From Candidatus Omnitrophota bacterium (GTDB lineage Bacteria > Omnitrophota > Omnitrophia > Omnitrophales > Aquincolibacteriaceae), in assembly GCA_041674705.1 (NCBI GenBank), contig JBAYVF010000001.1, positions 129,238 through 193,237 on the forward strand: a DNA stretch of 64,000 nucleotides, in the 5' to 3' direction. Below are positions 9,706 to 63,817 of this stretch, piece after piece. The position numbers and the translations under genes are program-made. The notes below the pieces were generated by a model. The model was not told the origin of the DNA and made no database searches. It saw only the letters and a list, made by a program, of their open reading frames with translations. Position 1 is the stretch's first letter, and each line of letters begins with the position of its first letter.

Positions 9706-9769
9706 AAGAGTGTTTCTTGACGGGGGGCGTACTTACAATTAAAATTTTCAAGGAATGGTCGATAATCTA

Positions 9770-9850
9770 CCCTGGCTTTGAATTTCTTTTTCTTGAAGGT
9801 AGCCAGGGTTGCCCAATTTCAACTTCGTTGAAATGGATAGGTATTGGGAC
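9770..9850. repeat. REP/BIME-like palindromic unit pair (CCCTGGCT...AGCCAGGG + GCCCAAT...ATTGGGAC)
   Basis: Two adjacent hairpin units. The second is a member of the 41-nt family also seen at 16798, 19143, 22144, 54157 and 54199. Confidence 0.8.
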
Positions 9851-9885
9851 TAGGGCGTCATAAAAGCTAACAAAAGGGAGGGATT

Positions 9886-10263
9886 ATGTTTAAGAAGATT
9901 ATCAGTATGACCGTGGTATTGGCCATGTTCATGGCCATCAGCGGCGTGGCTTATGCCGAAGAAAAGAATGCGGACAAAAGTCTGACCCGTGGCGCGGCAT
10001 CCTTGCTATTGCCGGGGTGGGGACAATATCTCAATAACGAAATGGACACCAAGAGCGGCAAGTTCAAGACCGGCGCCATGATCGTCCTCGAGATCGGCGG
10101 CATTGTGACGACGATCCTCCTCGGAACACTCGTGGGTTATCCCGTGATCTGGGTCGGTATCGGGATCCTGATGTTCAACCATATCTGGAGCGCTTCGGAT
10201 GCTTATCTGAAGGTCCCGGTGGGTCCTGAGGTCGGGATGAAGGGCGAGACGCTCGAGCGTTAA
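9886..10263 (+). CDS. small membrane protein with signal peptide and PGWGQY motif
   Basis: GGGAGGG RBS and an N-terminal signal peptide ending AYA. LLPGWGQYLN motif followed by two hydrophobic helices. Confidence 0.65.
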   Translation: MFKKIISMTVVLAMFMAISGVAYAEEKNADKSLTRGAASLLLPGWGQYLNNEMDTKSGKFKTGAMIVLEIGGIVTTILLGTLVGYPVIWVGIGILMFNHIWSASDAYLKVPVGPEVGMKGETLER

Positions 10264-16547: not shown

Positions 16548-16753
16548 GATATTATCCTCGGAAGTTTATATGTCCTCTCATGCAGGAATGTCCGTATAAT
16601 AACCAAACGCGCTCTGAAAAGGAAATCTATTTTTCCTCAAAAGGGCAAGAGGCCTGTTGCGACACACTTGTCCGGCGGCTATCCTTGTCTTTCATTTCTT
16701 TTCATTAAGGATGACATACTGATTTTTATTCACAATGAATGGTAATCAGTATA

Positions 16754-16838
16754 GTCCCAACCACCTTTAAATTTTTTATAGGGTTGGGACAAGGATGGCC
16801 CCAATTTCAACTGCGTTGAAATGGATAGGTATTGGGAC
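16754..16838. repeat. REP/BIME-like palindromic unit pair (GTCCCAACC...GGTTGGGAC + GCCCCAAT...ATTGGGAC)
   Basis: Second unit differs from the 9811 copy only in the hairpin loop (TGC vs TTC) and one C. Confidence 0.8.
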
Positions 16839-16891
16839 TAAAATGAGACGTGTTTTTTAAAATTTATATCGCATGAAAGGAGCTCCGCGCC

Positions 16892-20995: not shown

Positions 20996-21078
20996 TAGAG
21001 TTTCAAAGTGTCAGAGTGTCAAAGTTTCAAAGTGTTACAGTGCTGGCTTTGAACCTCGACACTCTGATACACTGACGC
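20996..21078. repeat. imperfect hairpin with CAAAGTGT-type short direct repeats
   Basis: TCAGAGTGTCAAAGTTTCAAAG (21011-21032) is complementary to CTTTGAACCTCGACACTCTGA (21047-21067) apart from an internal loop. Confidence 0.55.
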
Positions 21079-21103: not shown

Positions 21104-22144
21104 ATGGAAACTATTGTGGAAACAAAACCATTGTGTTCGCTCTTCGGCTCCTGCGGAGGATGCCAGTATCAAGACATGCCTTACGAGGAGGAGCTTTCCC
21201 GCAAAGAGGGGATCCTCAAAGAACTTCTTATAAAGGAGCTCAGCCTTTCCGGCGATGTTTTTGAGCCGATCGCTTCTTCGCCGGAGATTTATCACTACAG
21301 AAACCGGCTGGATCTCACCTTGCGCAAAAGGAATAACGGAGAGCGGCAAATGGGTTTTATGTTACCCGGGACGCAGAGGCTTCAGGAAGTCACGGTTTGC
21401 GCCATAGCCCGTAAAGAGATCAATGATTTCCTGCCCACATTAAAAGAAGAAGCGATTCGCAAATTTCCGGAGGATTATAAGGTCGCGAATCTGGTGGTCC
21501 GCGTGGGAGATGAAGGCAAGGTGTTTTGGGGCGGCATTGGCCGCCGGTCGCTTCGGATGAAAGCGGAAGATTATTTTTGGACAACCGTGCATGGACGGAA
21601 GATCTTTTACGCTCTCGACACATTTTTTCAGGCGAATCTTTCGATCCTCGAAAAGGTTGTTTCACGCATCGAAAGTCTTATTAAGTGGCAGAAGGACACA
21701 GTTTTTCTGGATCTTTATTCGGGCGTCGGCCTTTTCGGGATCGCCCTGGCGGATCGCGCTAAGGAAGTGGTCATGATCGAAGAATGCCGCGATTCTGTGA
21801 CCCTCGCTGAGTTCAATGTCGCTTATCACCGGCTGACACACGTCAAAATGCTTGTAGGAAAAGTTGAGACACACCTCTCGGAGGTCTTGACGGAGCATGC
21901 TGGGAAGCCTTGCGTCGCTTTGATCGACCCCCCGCGCGGTGGCCTTGCAAGTTCTGCGATCGAAACCTTAGGTGCGGCGAAAAGCCTCGAGTCCTTGTTT
22001 TATCTGTCCTGTTCGCCCGAATCGCTTGCGCGGGATCTGAAACATTTGGCGAAGGTCGGCTGGAAGGTCCGGAAGATCATGCCGTTCGATTTTTTCCCGC
22101 GGACGCGACATTTGGAGACATTGGCATGGCTCGCACGTTCCTAG
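21104..22144 (+). CDS. RNA (uracil-5)-methyltransferase, RumA/TrmA family (no TRAM domain)
   Basis: N-terminal Fe-S Cys cluster CSLFGSCGGCQYQ. SAM-binding LDLYSGVGLFG and catalytic DPPRGG...YLSCSP motifs. Confidence 0.82.
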   Translation: METIVETKPLCSLFGSCGGCQYQDMPYEEELSRKEGILKELLIKELSLSGDVFEPIASSPEIYHYRNRLDLTLRKRNNGERQMGFMLPGTQRLQEVTVCAIARKEINDFLPTLKEEAIRKFPEDYKVANLVVRVGDEGKVFWGGIGRRSLRMKAEDYFWTTVHGRKIFYALDTFFQANLSILEKVVSRIESLIKWQKDTVFLDLYSGVGLFGIALADRAKEVVMIEECRDSVTLAEFNVAYHRLTHVKMLVGKVETHLSEVLTEHAGKPCVALIDPPRGGLASSAIETLGAAKSLESLFYLSCSPESLARDLKHLAKVGWKVRKIMPFDFFPRTRHLETLAWLARS

Positions 22145-22800
22145 TCCCAAACCCTATCAATTTCAGAGAATCTGAAATTGGGGCAACCCTTGTCAACCCT
22201 ATAGAAAAAAAACCGAAGACAAGGGTAGCCGAGAAGCACGAACCTCTCGTGTTCAAGGATCTCTTCGGGAATTCCAATCCCGTCGAAATGGAGATCGGAT
22301 GCGGGAAGGGAAAATTTCTCGTGGCTCGCTCGATTGAAAACCCGGGAACCAATTTTCTGGGGGTCGATCGCGTCAGTAAGTTCATGAATATCGGGAAGAC
22401 GCGCGTCCAAAAACGGGCGCTTCCGAACATCCGGTTTCTGCGAGCTGAGGCGCGGGCTTTTTTAACCGAGGCGATCGCGCCCGGAAGCGTGAGTATCTTT
22501 CATATCTATTTCCCGGATCCCTGGCCGAAACGCCGGCATCAGGCCCGCCGTGTTTTCACAGAGGAACTTCTCAGACTGCTTCATTCGCGGCTTGTGGCGG
22601 GAGGGCTGATCGAGATCGCGACCGACGATAAGGACTATTTTACCGCCATGAAGAAAACCATAGCGGTGACCCAGGAACTCTGGGAGAATGTGCGCGAAAC
22701 GGTGAATGAGCGGATCCTGGACGGGTTGAATAAGACCAGTTACGAACTCAAATGGGCGGCTGAAGGCCGGCCTCTTTACTATACGGAGCTTAAGAAGTAA
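22126..22800 (+). CDS. trmB: tRNA (guanine-N7)-methyltransferase
   Basis: VEMEIGCGKGKFL SAM motif and FPDPWPKRRH signature. Start is uncertain: ATG 22126 makes the repeat coding, while GTG about 22248 does not. Confidence 0.8.
   Translation: MARTFLVPNPINFRESEIGATLVNPIEKKPKTRVAEKHEPLVFKDLFGNSNPVEMEIGCGKGKFLVARSIENPGTNFLGVDRVSKFMNIGKTRVQKRALPNIRFLRAEARAFLTEAIAPGSVSIFHIYFPDPWPKRRHQARRVFTEELLRLLHSRLVAGGLIEIATDDKDYFTAMKKTIAVTQELWENVRETVNERILDGLNKTSYELKWAAEGRPLYYTELKK
22144..22226. repeat. REP/BIME-like unit pair in reverse orientation relative to flanking genes
   Basis: GTCCCAAACCCTATCAATTTCAGAGAATCTGAAATTGGGGC followed by ACCCTTGTC...GACAAGGGT. Confidence 0.8.
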
Positions 22801-30488: not shown

Positions 30489-30620
30489 AAGCACCAAGAA
30501 TCAATTTCCAAATTCCAAGCAAGCACCAAACGCCAATCTTCAAAGTGTGTTTGGAATTTTTATTTTTGAGAAATGGAATTTGTTTGGTTCTTGGTTCTTG
30601 GTTCTTGGTTTTTGGAATTT
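30489..30620. repeat. long imperfect inverted repeat with CCAA / TTGG heptad-periodic arms
   Basis: Right arm contains TTGGTTC x3 in tandem, then TTGGTTT TTGGAAT. Left arm carries complementary ...CCAA motifs (AAATTCCAA, ACCAAAC). Confidence 0.6.
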
Positions 30621-43137: not shown

Positions 43138-43219
43138 CAGACTTCAGACTTCAGACTGGAGACTACAGACTTAAAAACAAGTTTTTTCCTGTAGTCTGTA
43201 GTCTGTGGTCTGTGGTCTC
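43138..43219. repeat. 31-bp imperfect hairpin whose arms are tandem heptamers (CAGACTN / CTGTNGT)
   Basis: Manual pairing gives 24 of 31 Watson-Crick pairs plus 3 G-U. Mismatches recur at the same positions of each 7-nt unit. Starts 1 nt after the yebC stop. Confidence 0.75.
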
Positions 43220-47405: not shown

Positions 47406-48140
47406 ATGACGACCCGAATCCTTTTAAAAAAACTCGGCGTTAATATCGATCATGTTGCGACATTGCGCCAGGCGCGTCTTGGGGAAGAGCCTTCCGTCCT
47501 GGAGGCCGCGCTCGAAGCGGAGCAAGGCGGGGCCGACAGTATTACGGTTCATTTGCGCGAAGATCGTCGTCACATCCAGGATGCGGACGTTTTTGAGCTC
47601 ATGGAAAAGATCTATGTTCCTCTCAATCTCGAGATGTCCGTCTCGTCCGAGATCCTGAAACTCGCCCTTAAAGTGAGACCCGCAAAGGCATGTCTCGTTC
47701 CCGAAAAGCGGAAAGAACTGACGACCGAGGGGGGCCTCGACCTTTTTTCAAAAAAGAACCCCTTGATCCGGACGGTCGACGCGCTTTTGGCGAAAAAAGT
47801 CGAGGTCAGCCTTTTTATTGATCCGGTGGAAACCCAAGTGCAAGAAGCCTCCCGGCTTGGCGCGTACGCGATCGAGATCCATACGGGATCGTATGCGAAT
47901 GCCGAGGGAAAGAAAAAAGAAAAGGAGCTTCTGCGCGTTTGTGAGGCCGCGCGGTTGGGCCACAAACTCGGGCTTCGAATCCATGCCGGGCATGGGCTTA
48001 ATTACGAGAATATTTTTCCGCTGCTTGCGATCCCGGAGATCATCGAATTCAATATCGGGCATTCCATCATCAGCCGCGCCATGTTCGTTGGATTAGCCAA
48101 AGCTGTCCAGGAAATGAAGAAAATAATTAGTACGAAGTAA
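47406..48140 (+). CDS. pdxJ: pyridoxine 5'-phosphate synthase
   Basis: LGVNIDHVATLRQAR and HLREDRRHI motifs. Confidence 0.93.
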   Translation: MTTRILLKKLGVNIDHVATLRQARLGEEPSVLEAALEAEQGGADSITVHLREDRRHIQDADVFELMEKIYVPLNLEMSVSSEILKLALKVRPAKACLVPEKRKELTTEGGLDLFSKKNPLIRTVDALLAKKVEVSLFIDPVETQVQEASRLGAYAIEIHTGSYANAEGKKKEKELLRVCEAARLGHKLGLRIHAGHGLNYENIFPLLAIPEIIEFNIGHSIISRAMFVGLAKAVQEMKKIISTK

Positions 48141-48207
48141 GGAGTACGGAGTACGGCGTAAAAACAAAGCCAAAGACTCCGTACCCCGTACGCCGTACGC
48201 CTTACTC
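48129..48207. repeat. imperfect hairpin with AGTACGG / CCGTACG tandem-heptamer arms
   Basis: 48136-48160 pairs with 48182-48206 at 22 of 25 positions, with a mismatch recurring every 7 nt. Overlaps the pdxJ stop codon. Confidence 0.7.
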
Positions 48208-53518: not shown

Positions 53519-53923
53519 ATGACTACGGAGCACGCGGCGCATCATCGCAAGAAAAGAATTCTGGCGGTGGATGATGACGGGCTGGTAAGGCGATCGCTGG
53601 AGATCCTGCTCCGGGAGGCCGGTTATGATCCGACGGTGGCGAGCGGCGGACAGGAAGCGCTCGGATTTCTCGTCCAGCGCCATTTTGATCTTTTGATCAC
53701 CGATATGCGTATGCCGGGTATGGACGGACTTCAGGTCATTCAAGCTGTTCGGGATTACTGCCGTGAGACGAAAAGGCCCCCAATCCCCGAAATCGTCCTG
53801 ACCGCCTATAACGATGATCAGGTCAAGCAATCCGCGATCCGGTTAGGCGTTCGGGAATTTCTTCTCAAGCCCTTCAAGATCGATGAATTTTTGACGGTCC
53901 TGAAGCATAACTTGAGTCGTTAA
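53519..53923 (+). CDS. single-domain response regulator (CheY-like receiver)
   Basis: ILAVDDD, phospho-acceptor LLITDMRMPGMDG, conserved T and K positions; GGGAGG RBS. Confidence 0.85.
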   Translation: MTTEHAAHHRKKRILAVDDDGLVRRSLEILLREAGYDPTVASGGQEALGFLVQRHFDLLITDMRMPGMDGLQVIQAVRDYCRETKRPPIPEIVLTAYNDDQVKQSAIRLGVREFLLKPFKIDEFLTVLKHNLSR

Positions 53924-54105
53924 CTGCCATCAGGAAGATGAAAATTAGAGTTGAGACCGGTTGCATTTTTCTTAAGTGCTGCGTTATGGTCAACTTTACG
54001 GGTTCGCAGTACTTGCACCGTTAACCCGTAAAAATAAATGGAAAACAGGGCGAGATAAGGTATCATGCATCTATCCCAGCTTTAGATTTTTTTATGTAAG
54101 GGGTA

Positions 54106-54239
54106 GTTGGGACAGCCCTGATTTTTATTTTCTTTTCCTGGATGGTAATCAGGGCAGCCCCAATCTCAGCTTTGCTTCGATTGATTGGAATTGGGACTGC
54201 CCCAATTTCAACTTCGTTAAAATTGATAGGTATTGGGAC
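54106..54239. repeat. tandem array of about 3.5 REP/BIME-like palindromic units ending at the downstream ATG
   Basis: TTGGGAC-AG-CCCTGATT...AATCAGGGC-AG-CCCCAAT...ATTGGGAC-TG-CCCCAAT...ATTGGGAC, then C and the ATG at 54241. Confidence 0.85.
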
Positions 54240-54240
54240 C

Positions 54241-54612
54241 ATGAAATCGAACGATCTGGATTTTGAGATCTCATTCCTCGAAGGCGTTCTAAAACACCGC
54301 CCCAATTACATTGACGCCTTGGCCCCGCTCGCGGAGGCCTATACACGCCAAGGTCTCTTCGAAAAAGGTCTCGAGATCGATAAGCGGCTCGCTTTTCTCT
54401 GTCAGGATGATCCGGTGGTTCATTACAATCTTGCCTGCAGTTATGTCCTTTCCGGCTATACCGCAAAGGCCCTGACGGCGCTTCGGCAGGCAGTTCGCCT
54501 GGGATTCACGGACCTGGCGCATCTGGGAAAAGACCCGGACTTGAAGCCTCTGCGCGAGTATCCTCCGTTCCAGAAATGGCTTTTGACCCTTTCTCAAAAA
54601 ACAAAATCCTGA
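54241..54612 (+). CDS. small TPR-like protein
   Basis: TPR-type helices (ALAPLAEAYTRQGLFEKGLEI, VHYNLACSYVLSGYTAKAL). Confidence 0.62.
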   Translation: MKSNDLDFEISFLEGVLKHRPNYIDALAPLAEAYTRQGLFEKGLEIDKRLAFLCQDDPVVHYNLACSYVLSGYTAKALTALRQAVRLGFTDLAHLGKDPDLKPLREYPPFQKWLLTLSQKTKS

Positions 54613-59424: not shown

Positions 59425-59515
59425 AAAAAGCGTAAGTAGTATGTGGCGGGTAGATCCAGCGAGCTGGCTTTAGCTAACTACTACCTACTACTTACCACCT
59501 ACTACATACTGGTTT
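59425..59515. repeat. imperfect hairpin with GTA / TAC heptad-periodic arms
   Basis: 59432-59453 vs 59488-59509 are complementary at 17 of 22 positions. Right arm reads TAACTAC TACCTAC TACTTAC CACCTAC TACATAC. Confidence 0.55.
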
Positions 59516-63172: not shown

Positions 63173-63195
63173 GCGAGGTGCTGGAAAAAAAGACA

Positions 63196-63378
63196 GTCCC
63201 AATTCGTGTCATCCCGCCGCTACAAAGGCGGGATGGGGCAGTCCTCGTCAACCATTTAAGAAGTAAAATTTATGACGAGGACAGAACTTCTGAAATTTGG
63301 TATACTTCCGTCTCTTATTTGACCCCAGATTCGTTCGGGGCGCCCTGATTTCTATAAAAATTTCAAGGAAATCAGGAC
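63196..63378. repeat. mixed-orientation array of REP/BIME-like palindromic units
   Basis: Four units: GTCCCAAT...(ATCCCGCC/GGCGGGAT)...GGGGC; GTCCTCGTC/GACGAGGAC; CCCCAGA..TTCGGGG; CCTGATTTC/GAAATCAGG followed by ACTGCC. Confidence 0.7.
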
Positions 63379-63498
63379 TGCCTCCGAAGTCTGTTGAGAT
63401 TTTTAATTAAGGTTCATCGGGGCGTAGCGGTCGCCACTAATGCTTGGGCGGCCAGCCCCCCAGTGTTTCAGTGGCGGGCGCAGCAGAATAGATTAAAA

Positions 63499-63744
63499 AT
63501 GAATTATTGTGTTTATATTCTGGAAAGTCAGAAAAACGGTTCGCGGTACATAGGCTTCACCCAGGATCTGGCAAAGCGCCTTCAGGAACATAATTCCGGG
63601 AGAAATGTTTCTACCCGAAGCAAAGGGCCATGGAAGCTCTTATATTCTGAAGAGCAGCCAACAAAATTATTGGCTGGGAAGCGTGAAAAGTTCTTTAAGA
63701 GTGGCCACGGACGAATTGTTATAAAAAATCTCATCGGGGCGTAG
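63499..63744 (+). CDS. small GIY-YIG nuclease-family protein
   Basis: YCVYILES...RYIGFT (GIY-YIG), RLQEHN, KREKFFK motifs. The stop codon lies inside tRNA-Pro. Confidence 0.85.
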   Translation: MNYCVYILESQKNGSRYIGFTQDLAKRLQEHNSGRNVSTRSKGPWKLLYSEEQPTKLLAGKREKFFKSGHGRIVIKNLIGA

Positions 63745-63808
63745 CGCAGCCTGGTAGCGCACACGCTTGGGGTGCGTGCGGTCGAAGGTTCAAATCCTTT
63801 CGCCCCGA
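63735..63808 (+). tRNA. tRNA-Pro (TGG)
   Basis: Manual cloverleaf: acceptor CGGGGCG/CGCCCCG, D arm GCGC-AGCCTGGTA-GCGC, anticodon stem CACGC/GCGTG with loop TTGGGGT, T arm GAAGG-TTCAAAT-CCTTT. Confidence 0.9.
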
Positions 63809-63817
63809 AATTCAGAA

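Follow-up and report, generated by a model that had tools for sequence, protein, structure and literature searches.

A hairpin array at a start codon in Candidatus Omnitrophota is best explained as the insertion of a mobile two-hairpin repeat

Introduction

Omnitrophota are an uncultured phylum of bacteria with small cells. The window considered here, a 64,000-nucleotide stretch from a Candidatus Omnitrophota bacterium (GCA_041674705.1, contig JBAYVF010000001.1, positions 129,238 to 193,237), contains a tandem array of hairpins that ends against the start codon of a gene for a tetratricopeptide repeat (TPR) protein. The most likely account of the array is a lineage-specific insertion by a new mobile family resembling repetitive extragenic palindromes (REPs) and miniature inverted-repeat transposable elements (MITEs), and not a regulator built for this gene. 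That it is an insertion of a mobile repeat family is very probable; how the family moves can be proposed only tentatively.

The array at the TPR start codon

Two kinds of hairpin, a variable one (H) and a conserved one (B), make up the array, and an H followed by a B forms a doublet. All features of the locus lie on the forward strand.

54039..54066 (+): putative TPR promoter, with -35 TGGAAA, a 16-nt spacer and -10 TATCAT (54061-54066); consensus scan and conservation
54071..54073 (+): target trinucleotide CTA, pre-existing, the A at 54073 being the A of the ancestral ATG; empty sites in relatives
54074..54113 (+): unit 1, H-type, TCCCAGCT..T-rich loop..GGGGT-AGTTGGGAC, first hairpin of the outer doublet; H family alignment and single-unit folding
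54116..54155 (+): unit 2, H-type, CCCTGATT..AATCAGGGC, first hairpin of the inner doublet; folding at -17.4 kcal/mol, z -3.9
54158..54197 (+): unit 3, B-type variant with arms CCCCAATCTCAGC..GATTGGAATTGGGAC (CCCCAATC..ATTGGGAC), second hairpin of the inner doublet; covariance model, 38.5 bits, E 2e-7
54200..54239 (+): unit 4, canonical B, CCCCAAT-TTCAAC TTC GTTAAA-ATTGATAGGT-ATTGGGAC, second hairpin of the outer doublet; covariance model, 66.6 bits, E 1.6e-14
54239..54241 (+): 3-nt tail CCA of the element, whose A now begins the start codon; comparison with empty sites
54241..54612 (+): TPR-repeat protein gene, 123 aa, conserved in Omnitrophota; weak Pfam TPR matches and full-length homologues

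The array (54074-54239) consists of four units of about 40 nt, preceded by the CTA at 54071-54073 and joined by 2-nt linkers (AG, AG and TG); a C follows the last unit, and then the ATG at 54241. Inspection of 54066-54246 gives the string ...TTGGGAC-AG-[CCCTGATT..AATCAGGGC]-AG-[CCCCAAT..ATTGGGAC]-TG-[CCCCAAT..ATTGGGAC]-C-ATG. The original prediction had described about 3.5 palindromic units; the array is real and its string exact, but the half unit proved to be a full hairpin (54074-54113), which brings the number to four. Its placement of the last unit 1 nt before the ATG is correct (54239 against 54241), as are the neighbouring genes it named (response regulator, TPR, DHH, AI-2E transporter and PilT-like ATPase). 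It had also seen no separate Shine-Dalgarno (SD) sequence, and none of the AGGAGG type occurs within 20 nt of the ATG, where the search returned only AGGU at -13 to -10 and GGGA at -6 to -3.

The constituent motifs are strongly enriched in the window relative to shuffled sequence: ATTGGGAC has 10 matches (2.3 expected), CCCAAT-N10-40-ATTGGG has 6 (0.1 expected), and a 37-nt core with two or fewer mismatches has 3 copies where none is expected. Folding was done unit by unit; that of the whole array is ambiguous, with adjacent arms pairing across units. Unit 4 folds weakly on the mRNA strand (-8.3 kcal/mol, z -0.5), leaving the AUG unpaired and AGGU in a loop, and considerably better on the opposite strand (-14.0 kcal/mol, z -3.3) because an invariant C.A mismatch becomes G.U there. 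Between 53850 and 54350 no intrinsic terminator was found, and the hairpins have no T-runs 3' of them. An internal promoter, from which a leaderless mRNA could arise, was rejected too: the consensus scan revealed no promoter-like site inside the array, and B has no TAnnnT at the right distance. A CRISPR-like array was considered and rejected, the apparent spacers being paired arms, the units dissimilar and the period irregular. Tandem Repeats Finder does not report the array, the dissimilarity between units being too great.

The array is also a trap for annotation. It is free of stop codons in several frames, and open reading frame (ORF) lists run through it (..APISTSLKLIGIGT..), yielding spurious ORFs at 54142-54612 and 53976-54266 on the forward strand and at 54063-54305 on the reverse strand.

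Empty sites in related genomes

Among about 120 listed matches to the TPR protein, nearly all are 123 aa long with coverage of the whole query, and ATG 54241 is therefore taken as the true start. The order elongation factor P, penicillin-binding protein, response regulator, TPR, DHH is conserved among relatives. Nine contigs with TPR orthologues were compared, at protein identities from 96% down to 66% (comparison loci and contigs are labelled with L-numbers). Six of the eight orthologous loci with a separate intergenic region lack the array; in the ninth, L130, the genes overlap. The six genomes without an array at the TPR start (L121, L122, L123, L124, L126 and L129) all carry a -10-like TATCAT or TATGAT exactly 6 nt from the ATG, without an SD, and share the block GATAAGGTAT[C/G]AT, followed by exactly 6 nt and the ATG. 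From its sequence we infer that this block acts as a promoter and that the transcript in these relatives is leaderless.

The empty sites read GCACCT|ATG in L123 and TATCCT|ATG in L129, where the window has GCATCTA and then the array. In context, L123 reads ...GATAAGGTATCATGCACCT ATG AAG and L129 reads ...TTGCAT-17-TATCAT-TATCCT-ATG, against ...GATAAGGTATCATGCATCTA[TCCCAGC...168 nt...GGGACCA]TGAAATCG in the window. Comparison of these junctions places the insertion within the ancestral start codon, directly after its A, with 54074-54241 (168 nt) as the inserted DNA. The last unit looks flush with the gene because the A of the element's tail replaces the A of the start codon. A related three-unit array with the tail CTA occupies the same insertion point in L127/L128 (88% identity), and L126 carries a reverse-oriented doublet just 5' of the TPR promoter.

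The array was thus inserted after the CTA of an ancestral ...TATCAT-GCAyCT-ATG. Units 1 and 4 form the outer doublet and units 2 and 3 a second doublet nested at its H|B junction, as in L098. Since the only promoter-like site near the gene lies upstream of the array, the array is probably now a 168-nt leader, carried by an mRNA that would ancestrally have been leaderless.

The TPR start-codon site is an insertion hot spot. In L125 (GCA_041643255.1, a TPR orthologue with 96% identity), an unrelated MITE of about 125 nt (250-385) lies in the same start codon. It has 14-nt inverted ends (CCCCGTTAGATCTC..GAGATCTAACGGGG) and a TGAA duplication, and the start is rebuilt as GTG, with AGGAG inside the MITE 10 nt upstream. 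In the window, TTGCAT and GATAAGGTATCAT are separated by a segment of about 75 nt (53976-54032) that contains the inverted repeat TTTACGGGTT / AACCCGTAAA. The segment is missing in L125, L126 and L129, where TTGCAT is the -35, and may be another small palindromic insertion within the promoter.

Structure and distribution of the repeat family

The unit that is recurrently gained and lost is a doublet of about 83 nt, H followed by B; H is almost always 5' of B, and the units of one array share the same orientation. In B, an outer helix (GCCCCAAT/ATTGGGAC) encloses a small inner hairpin, with an asymmetric loop (TTGATAGGT) on the 3' side. The 9-bp stem of H is variable and framed by YCC...GGR; its loop is rich in T, and GGT stands immediately before the 3' arm. 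Both stems evolve by compensatory change. In B, the inner helix occurs as the sets TTTCAAC/GTTGAAA, TTTCAGA/TCTGAAA, TTTTCAC/GTGAAAA and CATCCCGCC/GGCGGGATG. An alignment of 36 copies has 86% of cells paired, changes on both sides in 8 of 16 pairs and a covariation score of 0.229, against 0.085 in shuffles and reached by none of 500. In the H family alignment, seven of the nine stem pairs show compensatory changes. B also carries an invariant mismatch that reads C.A on one strand and G.T on its complement (51 versus 3 across the family); H units show no such strand asymmetry. An antisense function for B was not accepted on this basis, given its absence from H, and the asymmetry is kept only as a clue. 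Several H 3' arms read ACAAGGAU, which may resemble the CsrA-binding consensus.

The repeats form a multi-copy family found in Candidatus Omnitrophota genomes only. A scan with the 15-mer GATAGGTATTGGGAC, at one genome per species, returned about 50 loci with a whole unit, all from Candidatus Omnitrophota metagenome-assembled genomes (MAGs) of a dozen or more species. A covariance model for B, built from 36 distinct copies, found 6 strong matches in the window, a further 79 among loci from Omnitrophota and 52 on metagenome contigs. It found no B unit in 46 non-Omnitrophota control loci holding the same 15-mer and no real one in 56 viral loci holding it. The window contains about 14 units in seven places, and the Omnitrophota DNA examined has more than 130 B units, mostly between ORFs. 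The unit 2 type, for instance, is also present in L098, L051, L022 and L215. A text search of the literature returned no paper on such repeats in Omnitrophota, and the two-hairpin mobile repeat appears to be previously undescribed.

Some copies are embedded in larger structures. A longer multi-copy repeat, in which an H+B doublet is followed by a long hairpin TAGCGTGCCTCG...CACGCTA and then by AAGGAGGCCGAG, occurs in L017, L028, L052, L053, L068, L108, L110, L197 and L205, often at contig ends. Doublets also lie inside long ORFs with the frame kept (L022 3222-3311, L060 5952-6041 and 7305-7394, L117 6414-6503); in L022, a 440-aa histidine kinase reads ..PISRNEVEIGAVP.. across the element.

The compensatory changes in both helices, and the possibly CsrA-site-like arms of H, might also be expected of an independent structured RNA kept for a function at the RNA level, for instance a small RNA, a riboswitch-like leader or an RNA whose GGA motifs act as a protein sponge. 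Such an origin is very improbable. At gathering thresholds, Rfam 15 finds only two tRNAs in the whole window, and at E <= 10 nothing better than E = 1.4 on 53900-54300. Neither promoter-like nor terminator-like sites were seen within the array. Arrays lie in either orientation relative to transcription, some of them at stop codons or within ORFs; they are not conserved at orthologous sites, and at the four sites named in the original prediction the better-folding B strand is antisense to the flanking genes.

Arrays elsewhere in the window

The remaining six places include three of the four sites to which the original prediction had drawn attention.

9769..9852 (+): H+B doublet (CTA / TTG / CTA), 36 nt 5' of the ATG at 9886; covariance model
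16679..16840 (+): H+B doublet with the H 3' arm (GACA|AGGAT) split by a nested insertion; absence in L055
19141..19228 (-): H+B doublet (CTG / CTG / CTG), 7 nt 5' of the AI-2E transporter ATG (19135); covariance model and L055
22142..22228 (-): H+B doublet whose tail CTA complements the TAG stop (22142-22144) of a convergent gene; covariance model
63194..63284 (-): H+B doublet with a GC-rich inner-hairpin B variant, CCCCATCCCGCC..GGCGGGATG; covariance model, 19.1 bits
63940..63982 (strand not assigned): single symmetric CCCAAT..ATTGGG hairpin 3' of tRNA-Pro at the window edge; about 17 bits on either strand

As had been noted, the order and orientation at the TPR gene recur at 9886, pilT (16892) and, on the reverse strand, AI-2E (19135), with gaps of 36, 53 and 7 nt. 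Gene 9886 has its own SD (GGGAGGG) in the 36-nt gap after the array, and the 53-nt gap before pilT contains AAGGAG. The nested insertion at pilT is 75 nt long (16717-16791) and comprises two hairpins. The arrays at 22142-22228(-) and 63194-63284(-), outside the set considered earlier, have the opposite arrangement: the first meets a convergent gene for a tRNA U5-methyltransferase-like protein, and the second lies 22 nt past the end of a forward-strand gene. The GC-rich B variant of the latter is also present in L038, L061, L090 and L109.

Other small elements were seen in the window. A GIY-YIG ORF (63499-63741, 80 aa) ends within tRNA-Pro (63734-63809), and the 16-mer TCATCGGGGCGTAGCG, which includes the 5' end of the tRNA, is present twice, ahead of the ORF (63414-63429) and again at the tRNA (63731-63746). 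The pattern resembles a GIY-YIG cassette that entered a tRNA gene and restored the 5' end. The ORF was examined for its proximity to the 63.5-kb arrays and set aside, its one other homologue being far from any array. Tandem arrays of 7-nt units (8 nt in one case) form a repeat class separate from the hairpin units and lie at gene boundaries, at 43138-43172 / 43189-43218, 48136-48161 / 48179-48205, 30584-30615, 59474-59510 and 20999-21035; those at 43138 and 48136 are adjacent pairs with different units.

Element ends and mobility

Orthologous sites differ in whether they carry a copy of the family, and an empty site retains the trinucleotide once. Two MAG contigs share about 80% nucleotide identity with the window. 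The syntenic L055 has no pilT array (about 50 nt there, 210 nt in the window), and relative to it the AI-2E array corresponds to a clean 83-nt insertion, ..TTCAG|TCTAGCGG becoming ..ATCAG[83 nt]TCTAGCGG; L055 in turn carries a doublet that is not in the window. Compared with five paralogous or orthologous copies, L017 has an extra doublet inserted at ..CTCCG|CT.., and L098 has an additional H+B pair at a GGGAC-AG junction relative to the orthologous site in L095. New doublets thus insert at the junctions or arms of old ones, giving arrays of a single orientation. The pilT composite with its split H 3' arm is also found in L076, another locus of a related genome, where the split stem shows a compensatory change.

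The ends of the doublets follow a pattern. In 47 of 73 doublets the trinucleotide preceding H (X) is identical to the 3-nt tail that follows B (Z), against a permutation mean of 15 and maximum of 23. Flanking trinucleotides are mostly CTA and of the CNR type, and the main classes of X, H-B linker (Y) and Z are CTA/TTG/CTA, CCG/CGG/CCG, CGG/CCG/CGG, CAG/CAG/CTG (that of units 2 and 3 at the TPR gene) and CCA/TGG/CCA. Z tends to complement Y and so to lengthen the B stem, CGG occurring with CCG and TGG with CCA. A plain target duplication does not predict this link; a mechanism that matches target to element would. The single copy of 3-5 nt retained in empty sites (GACTG, CCG, CTA) fits seamless insertion beside a target and a 3-bp duplication equally. 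The termini themselves share only 4-8 nt ([A/G]TCC...GGAC), and long terminal inverted repeats are absent.

Local tandem duplication by replication slippage, without transposition, is a highly improbable account of the arrays. The shared GGAC-NG-CCC junctions could mediate slippage, doublets are tandemly repeated in L022 and L219, and L127 resembles the window array with an internal deletion. Yet the four TPR units are different sequences and not copies of one another, the same unit types recur in at least a dozen genomes, at dozens of unrelated loci, and the empty sites show arrival de novo in non-repeat DNA. These findings contradict slippage as the origin of the arrays; it may change their length.

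Several observations weigh against insertion by transposition as the explanation. No transposase was found in the DNA examined: no ORF travels with the arrays, and comparing all ORFs with one another revealed no neighbour that recurs. The ORFs flanked by oppositely oriented arrays, tried as transposase candidates, are ordinary genes, and no insertion sequence (IS) with such ends was seen in the examined loci. Searches with phmmer, using E. coli RayT and an IS608 TnpA as queries, found nothing at E <= 10 among the ORFs of the Omnitrophota DNA examined, which at about 670 kb represents only a small part of these genomes. With neither long terminal inverted repeats nor a GTAG head, the element fits no characterised family cleanly. 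In the window, a small sample, array strands are evenly divided (three forward, three reverse) with nearly all genes on the forward strand, unlike the pattern of IS608, which targets the lagging strand. Presence and absence could in part reflect precise loss by slippage between 3-5-nt direct repeats. Finally, pure neutral insertion does not explain a roughly fivefold excess of arrays flush with start codons over a uniform target model, a statistic of gene context that relies on gene calls from a home-made codon model.

Gene context and translation initiation

Gene context was analysed for 84 de-duplicated arrays within 60 nt of each end, using the codon-model gene calls. The tail (3') side faces 34 gene starts and 15 gene ends; the H (5') side faces 14 starts and 8 ends, with no offset spikes. 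Starts on the tail side lie at 0 nt in nine cases and at 2-7 nt in six. Eight of the tail-side ends are opposite-strand TAG stops, the complement of the tail CTA. The window supplied the background: 335 CYA sites in non-coding DNA, 14 of 68 starts with a preceding CY and 19 of 68 TAG stops. The stop-codon cases match a uniform CTA-target model (about 14%), but flush starts make up roughly 17-20% of CYA-tail arrays against about 4% expected (9 versus about 2). An orientation bias had been proposed as a check. Within 60 nt, the B end points toward starts 34 times against 14. A coarser first count of nearest genes is unbiased, with 31 co-oriented and 23 anti-oriented downstream and 27 of each upstream.

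The flush genes represent 11 gene families, including TPR, prfB and ptsI; others are LeuC-like and lipid A acyltransferase-like, assignments that come from reading N-terminal sequences and have no database match. Several of these families recur in four or five genomes with differing array composition. Flush genes have no SD besides the AGGU (-13 to -10) or GGGA of B, so that B ends must at least permit initiation, and in L013 about 85 nt now separate the native ptsI SD (GGAG) from the ATG downstream of it. As a separate observation, -10 boxes similar to that of the TPR gene precede the insertion point by 8-11 nt at prfB (L024, L195) and at the LeuC-like gene (L011, L193, L203, L212). Promoter-proximal starts may be hot spots, a -10 box preceding the insertion by 6-11 nt at the TPR, prfB and LeuC-like genes.

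These data bear on the proposal that B is a functional module for translation initiation or mRNA stability, its G-rich 3' half (GAUAGGUAUUGGGAC) binding the ribosome with the start 0-7 nt downstream. Selection would then keep or favour start-codon copies, a view compatible with mobility, and it is a possibility that we hold less probable than not by a clear distance. In its favour, 15 of the 34 starts facing a tail lie within 7 nt, the nine flush cases exceed the two or so expected, and B ends point toward starts. Flush genes such as prfB, ptsI and the LeuC-like and acyltransferase-like genes lack another SD, that of ptsI having been displaced in L013, and the last two carry flush arrays of differing composition in four to five genomes. 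AGGU at -13 to -10 in flush copies, GGGA at about -12 to -9 in copies 6-7 nt away, and the weak mRNA-strand hairpin of the last unit would also suit a ribosome-binding region. However, most orthologous TPR loci have no array, so the gene does not need it, H units carry the same GGT motif yet abut no genes, and many arrays face no gene start. The SD matches span only 4 nt, and flush copies may persist longer at starts, where only precise deletions are survivable. Equally sharp placement at the eight opposite-strand stops points to target and tail chemistry.

The original prediction had gone further, proposing that the G-rich arm is an SD surrogate base-paired within the unit and that the units modulate the genes they precede. 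The base pairing is contradicted by the weak fold of unit 4 on the mRNA strand, and the surrogate at the flush site by the position of GGGA, which at 2 nt from the ATG is too close. A gene-specific role is not borne out by the array's absence from the junction in six relatives and of the pilT and AI-2E arrays from L055, and modulation in general is at odds with arrays at stop codons, between convergent genes and within ORFs, as well as with the two of four cited genes that have their own SD downstream. What survives is a weaker form, in which B ends permit initiation at an abutting AUG and co-option is only possible. By comparison with a cis-regulatory leader, position and orientation are not conserved before orthologues, arrays are found in every kind of gene context, and neither an SD nor the start lies in a stable mRNA-strand structure.

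The tail of the element accounts for the flush position as such. Behind the excess at start codons there may be a target bias (perhaps for promoter-proximal starts), longer survival there, or real use of B as a makeshift ribosome-binding region, a role that some B ends may have. At the TPR gene, initiation at the abutting AUG would rely on the weakly folded, G-rich 3' half of B.

A bolder scheme, to which we give little credence, combines these elements. The HB doublets would be a new class of hairpin-guided mobile element that prefers, or survives at, start codons, picking a trinucleotide that matches its own tail through pairing at the hairpin foot. The A of an ATG, or an opposite-strand TAG stop, would thereby be regenerated, and the weakly folded G-rich 3' end would serve as a ribosome-binding region that travels with the element. 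In this way genes that were leaderless or led by an SD, prfB and ptsI among them, would gain long hairpin leaders.

Comparison with known mobile repeats

IS608 pairs a guide sequence with its cleavage site. For the Omnitrophota doublets, movement by a hairpin-recognising enzyme of the IS200/IS605-RAYT type (RAYT, REP-associated tyrosine transposase) or by another transposase encoded elsewhere, with a target chosen to match the element's own end, would fit the insertions; a chemistry of the first kind, hairpin-recognising and target-matching, is proposed only tentatively. The IS200/IS605 family, its transposase-less derivatives (palindrome-associated transposable elements, PATEs, and MITE-like forms) and the IS608 paradigm have been reviewed (PMC6006769). 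The doublets resemble these elements in having sub-terminal hairpins (H at the 5' side, B at the 3' side) without long terminal inverted repeats, in apparently inserting beside a short specific sequence that is retained in the empty site, in the correlation between the end and the sequence at the hairpin foot, and in the better folding of one B strand. They differ in that no TnpA or TnpB was found in the DNA searched, that the target is the element's own 3' end, which is not the IS608 rule, that it varies by subfamily (CTA, CCG, CGG, CTG, CCA), and that no replication-strand bias is visible among the few arrays of the window.

REPs, bacterial interspersed mosaic elements (BIMEs) and the REP doublets called REPINs are found in Enterobacteria and Pseudomonas and are mobilised by RAYTs (PMC3116915, PMC3337134). 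Likenesses to the Omnitrophota repeats are extensive: imperfect palindromes of 35-45 nt, non-coding, high in copy number, mostly intergenic and clustered, with several sequence classes per genome, compensatory stems and movement as two-hairpin doublets. REPINs, however, are inverted pairs, whereas here two unlike hairpins stand in direct orientation, H then B. There is no external GTAG head, a GGTA(G) motif lying instead inside the loop at the 3' arm, and the flanks form a 3-nt direct repeat. REPs lie mostly 3' of genes, whereas here many copies abut start or stop codons.

The repeats could still be true REPs of a REP-RAYT system, or REPtron, in which one domesticated Y1 tyrosine transposase per genome disperses the doublets and binds the B hairpin as single-stranded DNA, though we regard this as rather doubtful. 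It would account for short, imperfect, mostly extragenic palindromes at high copy whose stems are kept by compensatory change. The C.A/G.T asymmetry of B (51 versus 3) and its folding (-14.0 versus -8.3 kcal/mol) suggest one active DNA strand, and the co-variation of tail and internal linker recalls IS608 guide pairing. Moreover, REPs move as doublets (REPINs; PMC3116915). Against it stand the lack of a RAYT in the roughly 670 kb searched, the direct rather than inverted arrangement of two differing hairpins, the absence of a GTAG head outside the palindrome, the symmetry of H units and the lack of orientation bias over 64 kb in which nearly all genes lie on one strand.

Classical MITEs that affect adjacent genes include the Correia elements of Neisseria and the ERIC/IRU (enterobacterial repetitive intergenic consensus/intergenic repeat unit) elements of Yersinia. 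Like these, the Omnitrophota insertions are about 80-170 nt long, have a short duplicated target, lie close to gene starts and would be co-transcribed with their neighbours, with possible effects on mRNA folding, stability and initiation. Their terminal inverted repeat, by contrast, is at most 5-8 nt ([A/G]TCCC...GGGAC), they consist of two separate hairpins and not one long one, and tandem or nested arrays of one orientation are common. Rickettsia palindromic elements (RPEs) are known for copies inside ORFs. The in-frame copies in long ORFs (the L022 histidine kinase, L060 and L117) are similar in this respect, but they are only a minority of the copies, are unrelated to RPEs in sequence and come from a different phylum.

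Implications

As the insertion of a mobile repeat, the TPR array shows that a tiny mobile element can occupy a start codon without destroying the gene. For annotation, such arrays give spurious ORFs, and the start codon beside them can be mis-assigned. The family explains many odd intergenic regions and contig breaks in Omnitrophota genomes and provides a marker of strain-level variation. If the B end does support initiation, it would be a natural, portable ribosome-binding module and would offer leaderless genes a route to acquire structured leaders.

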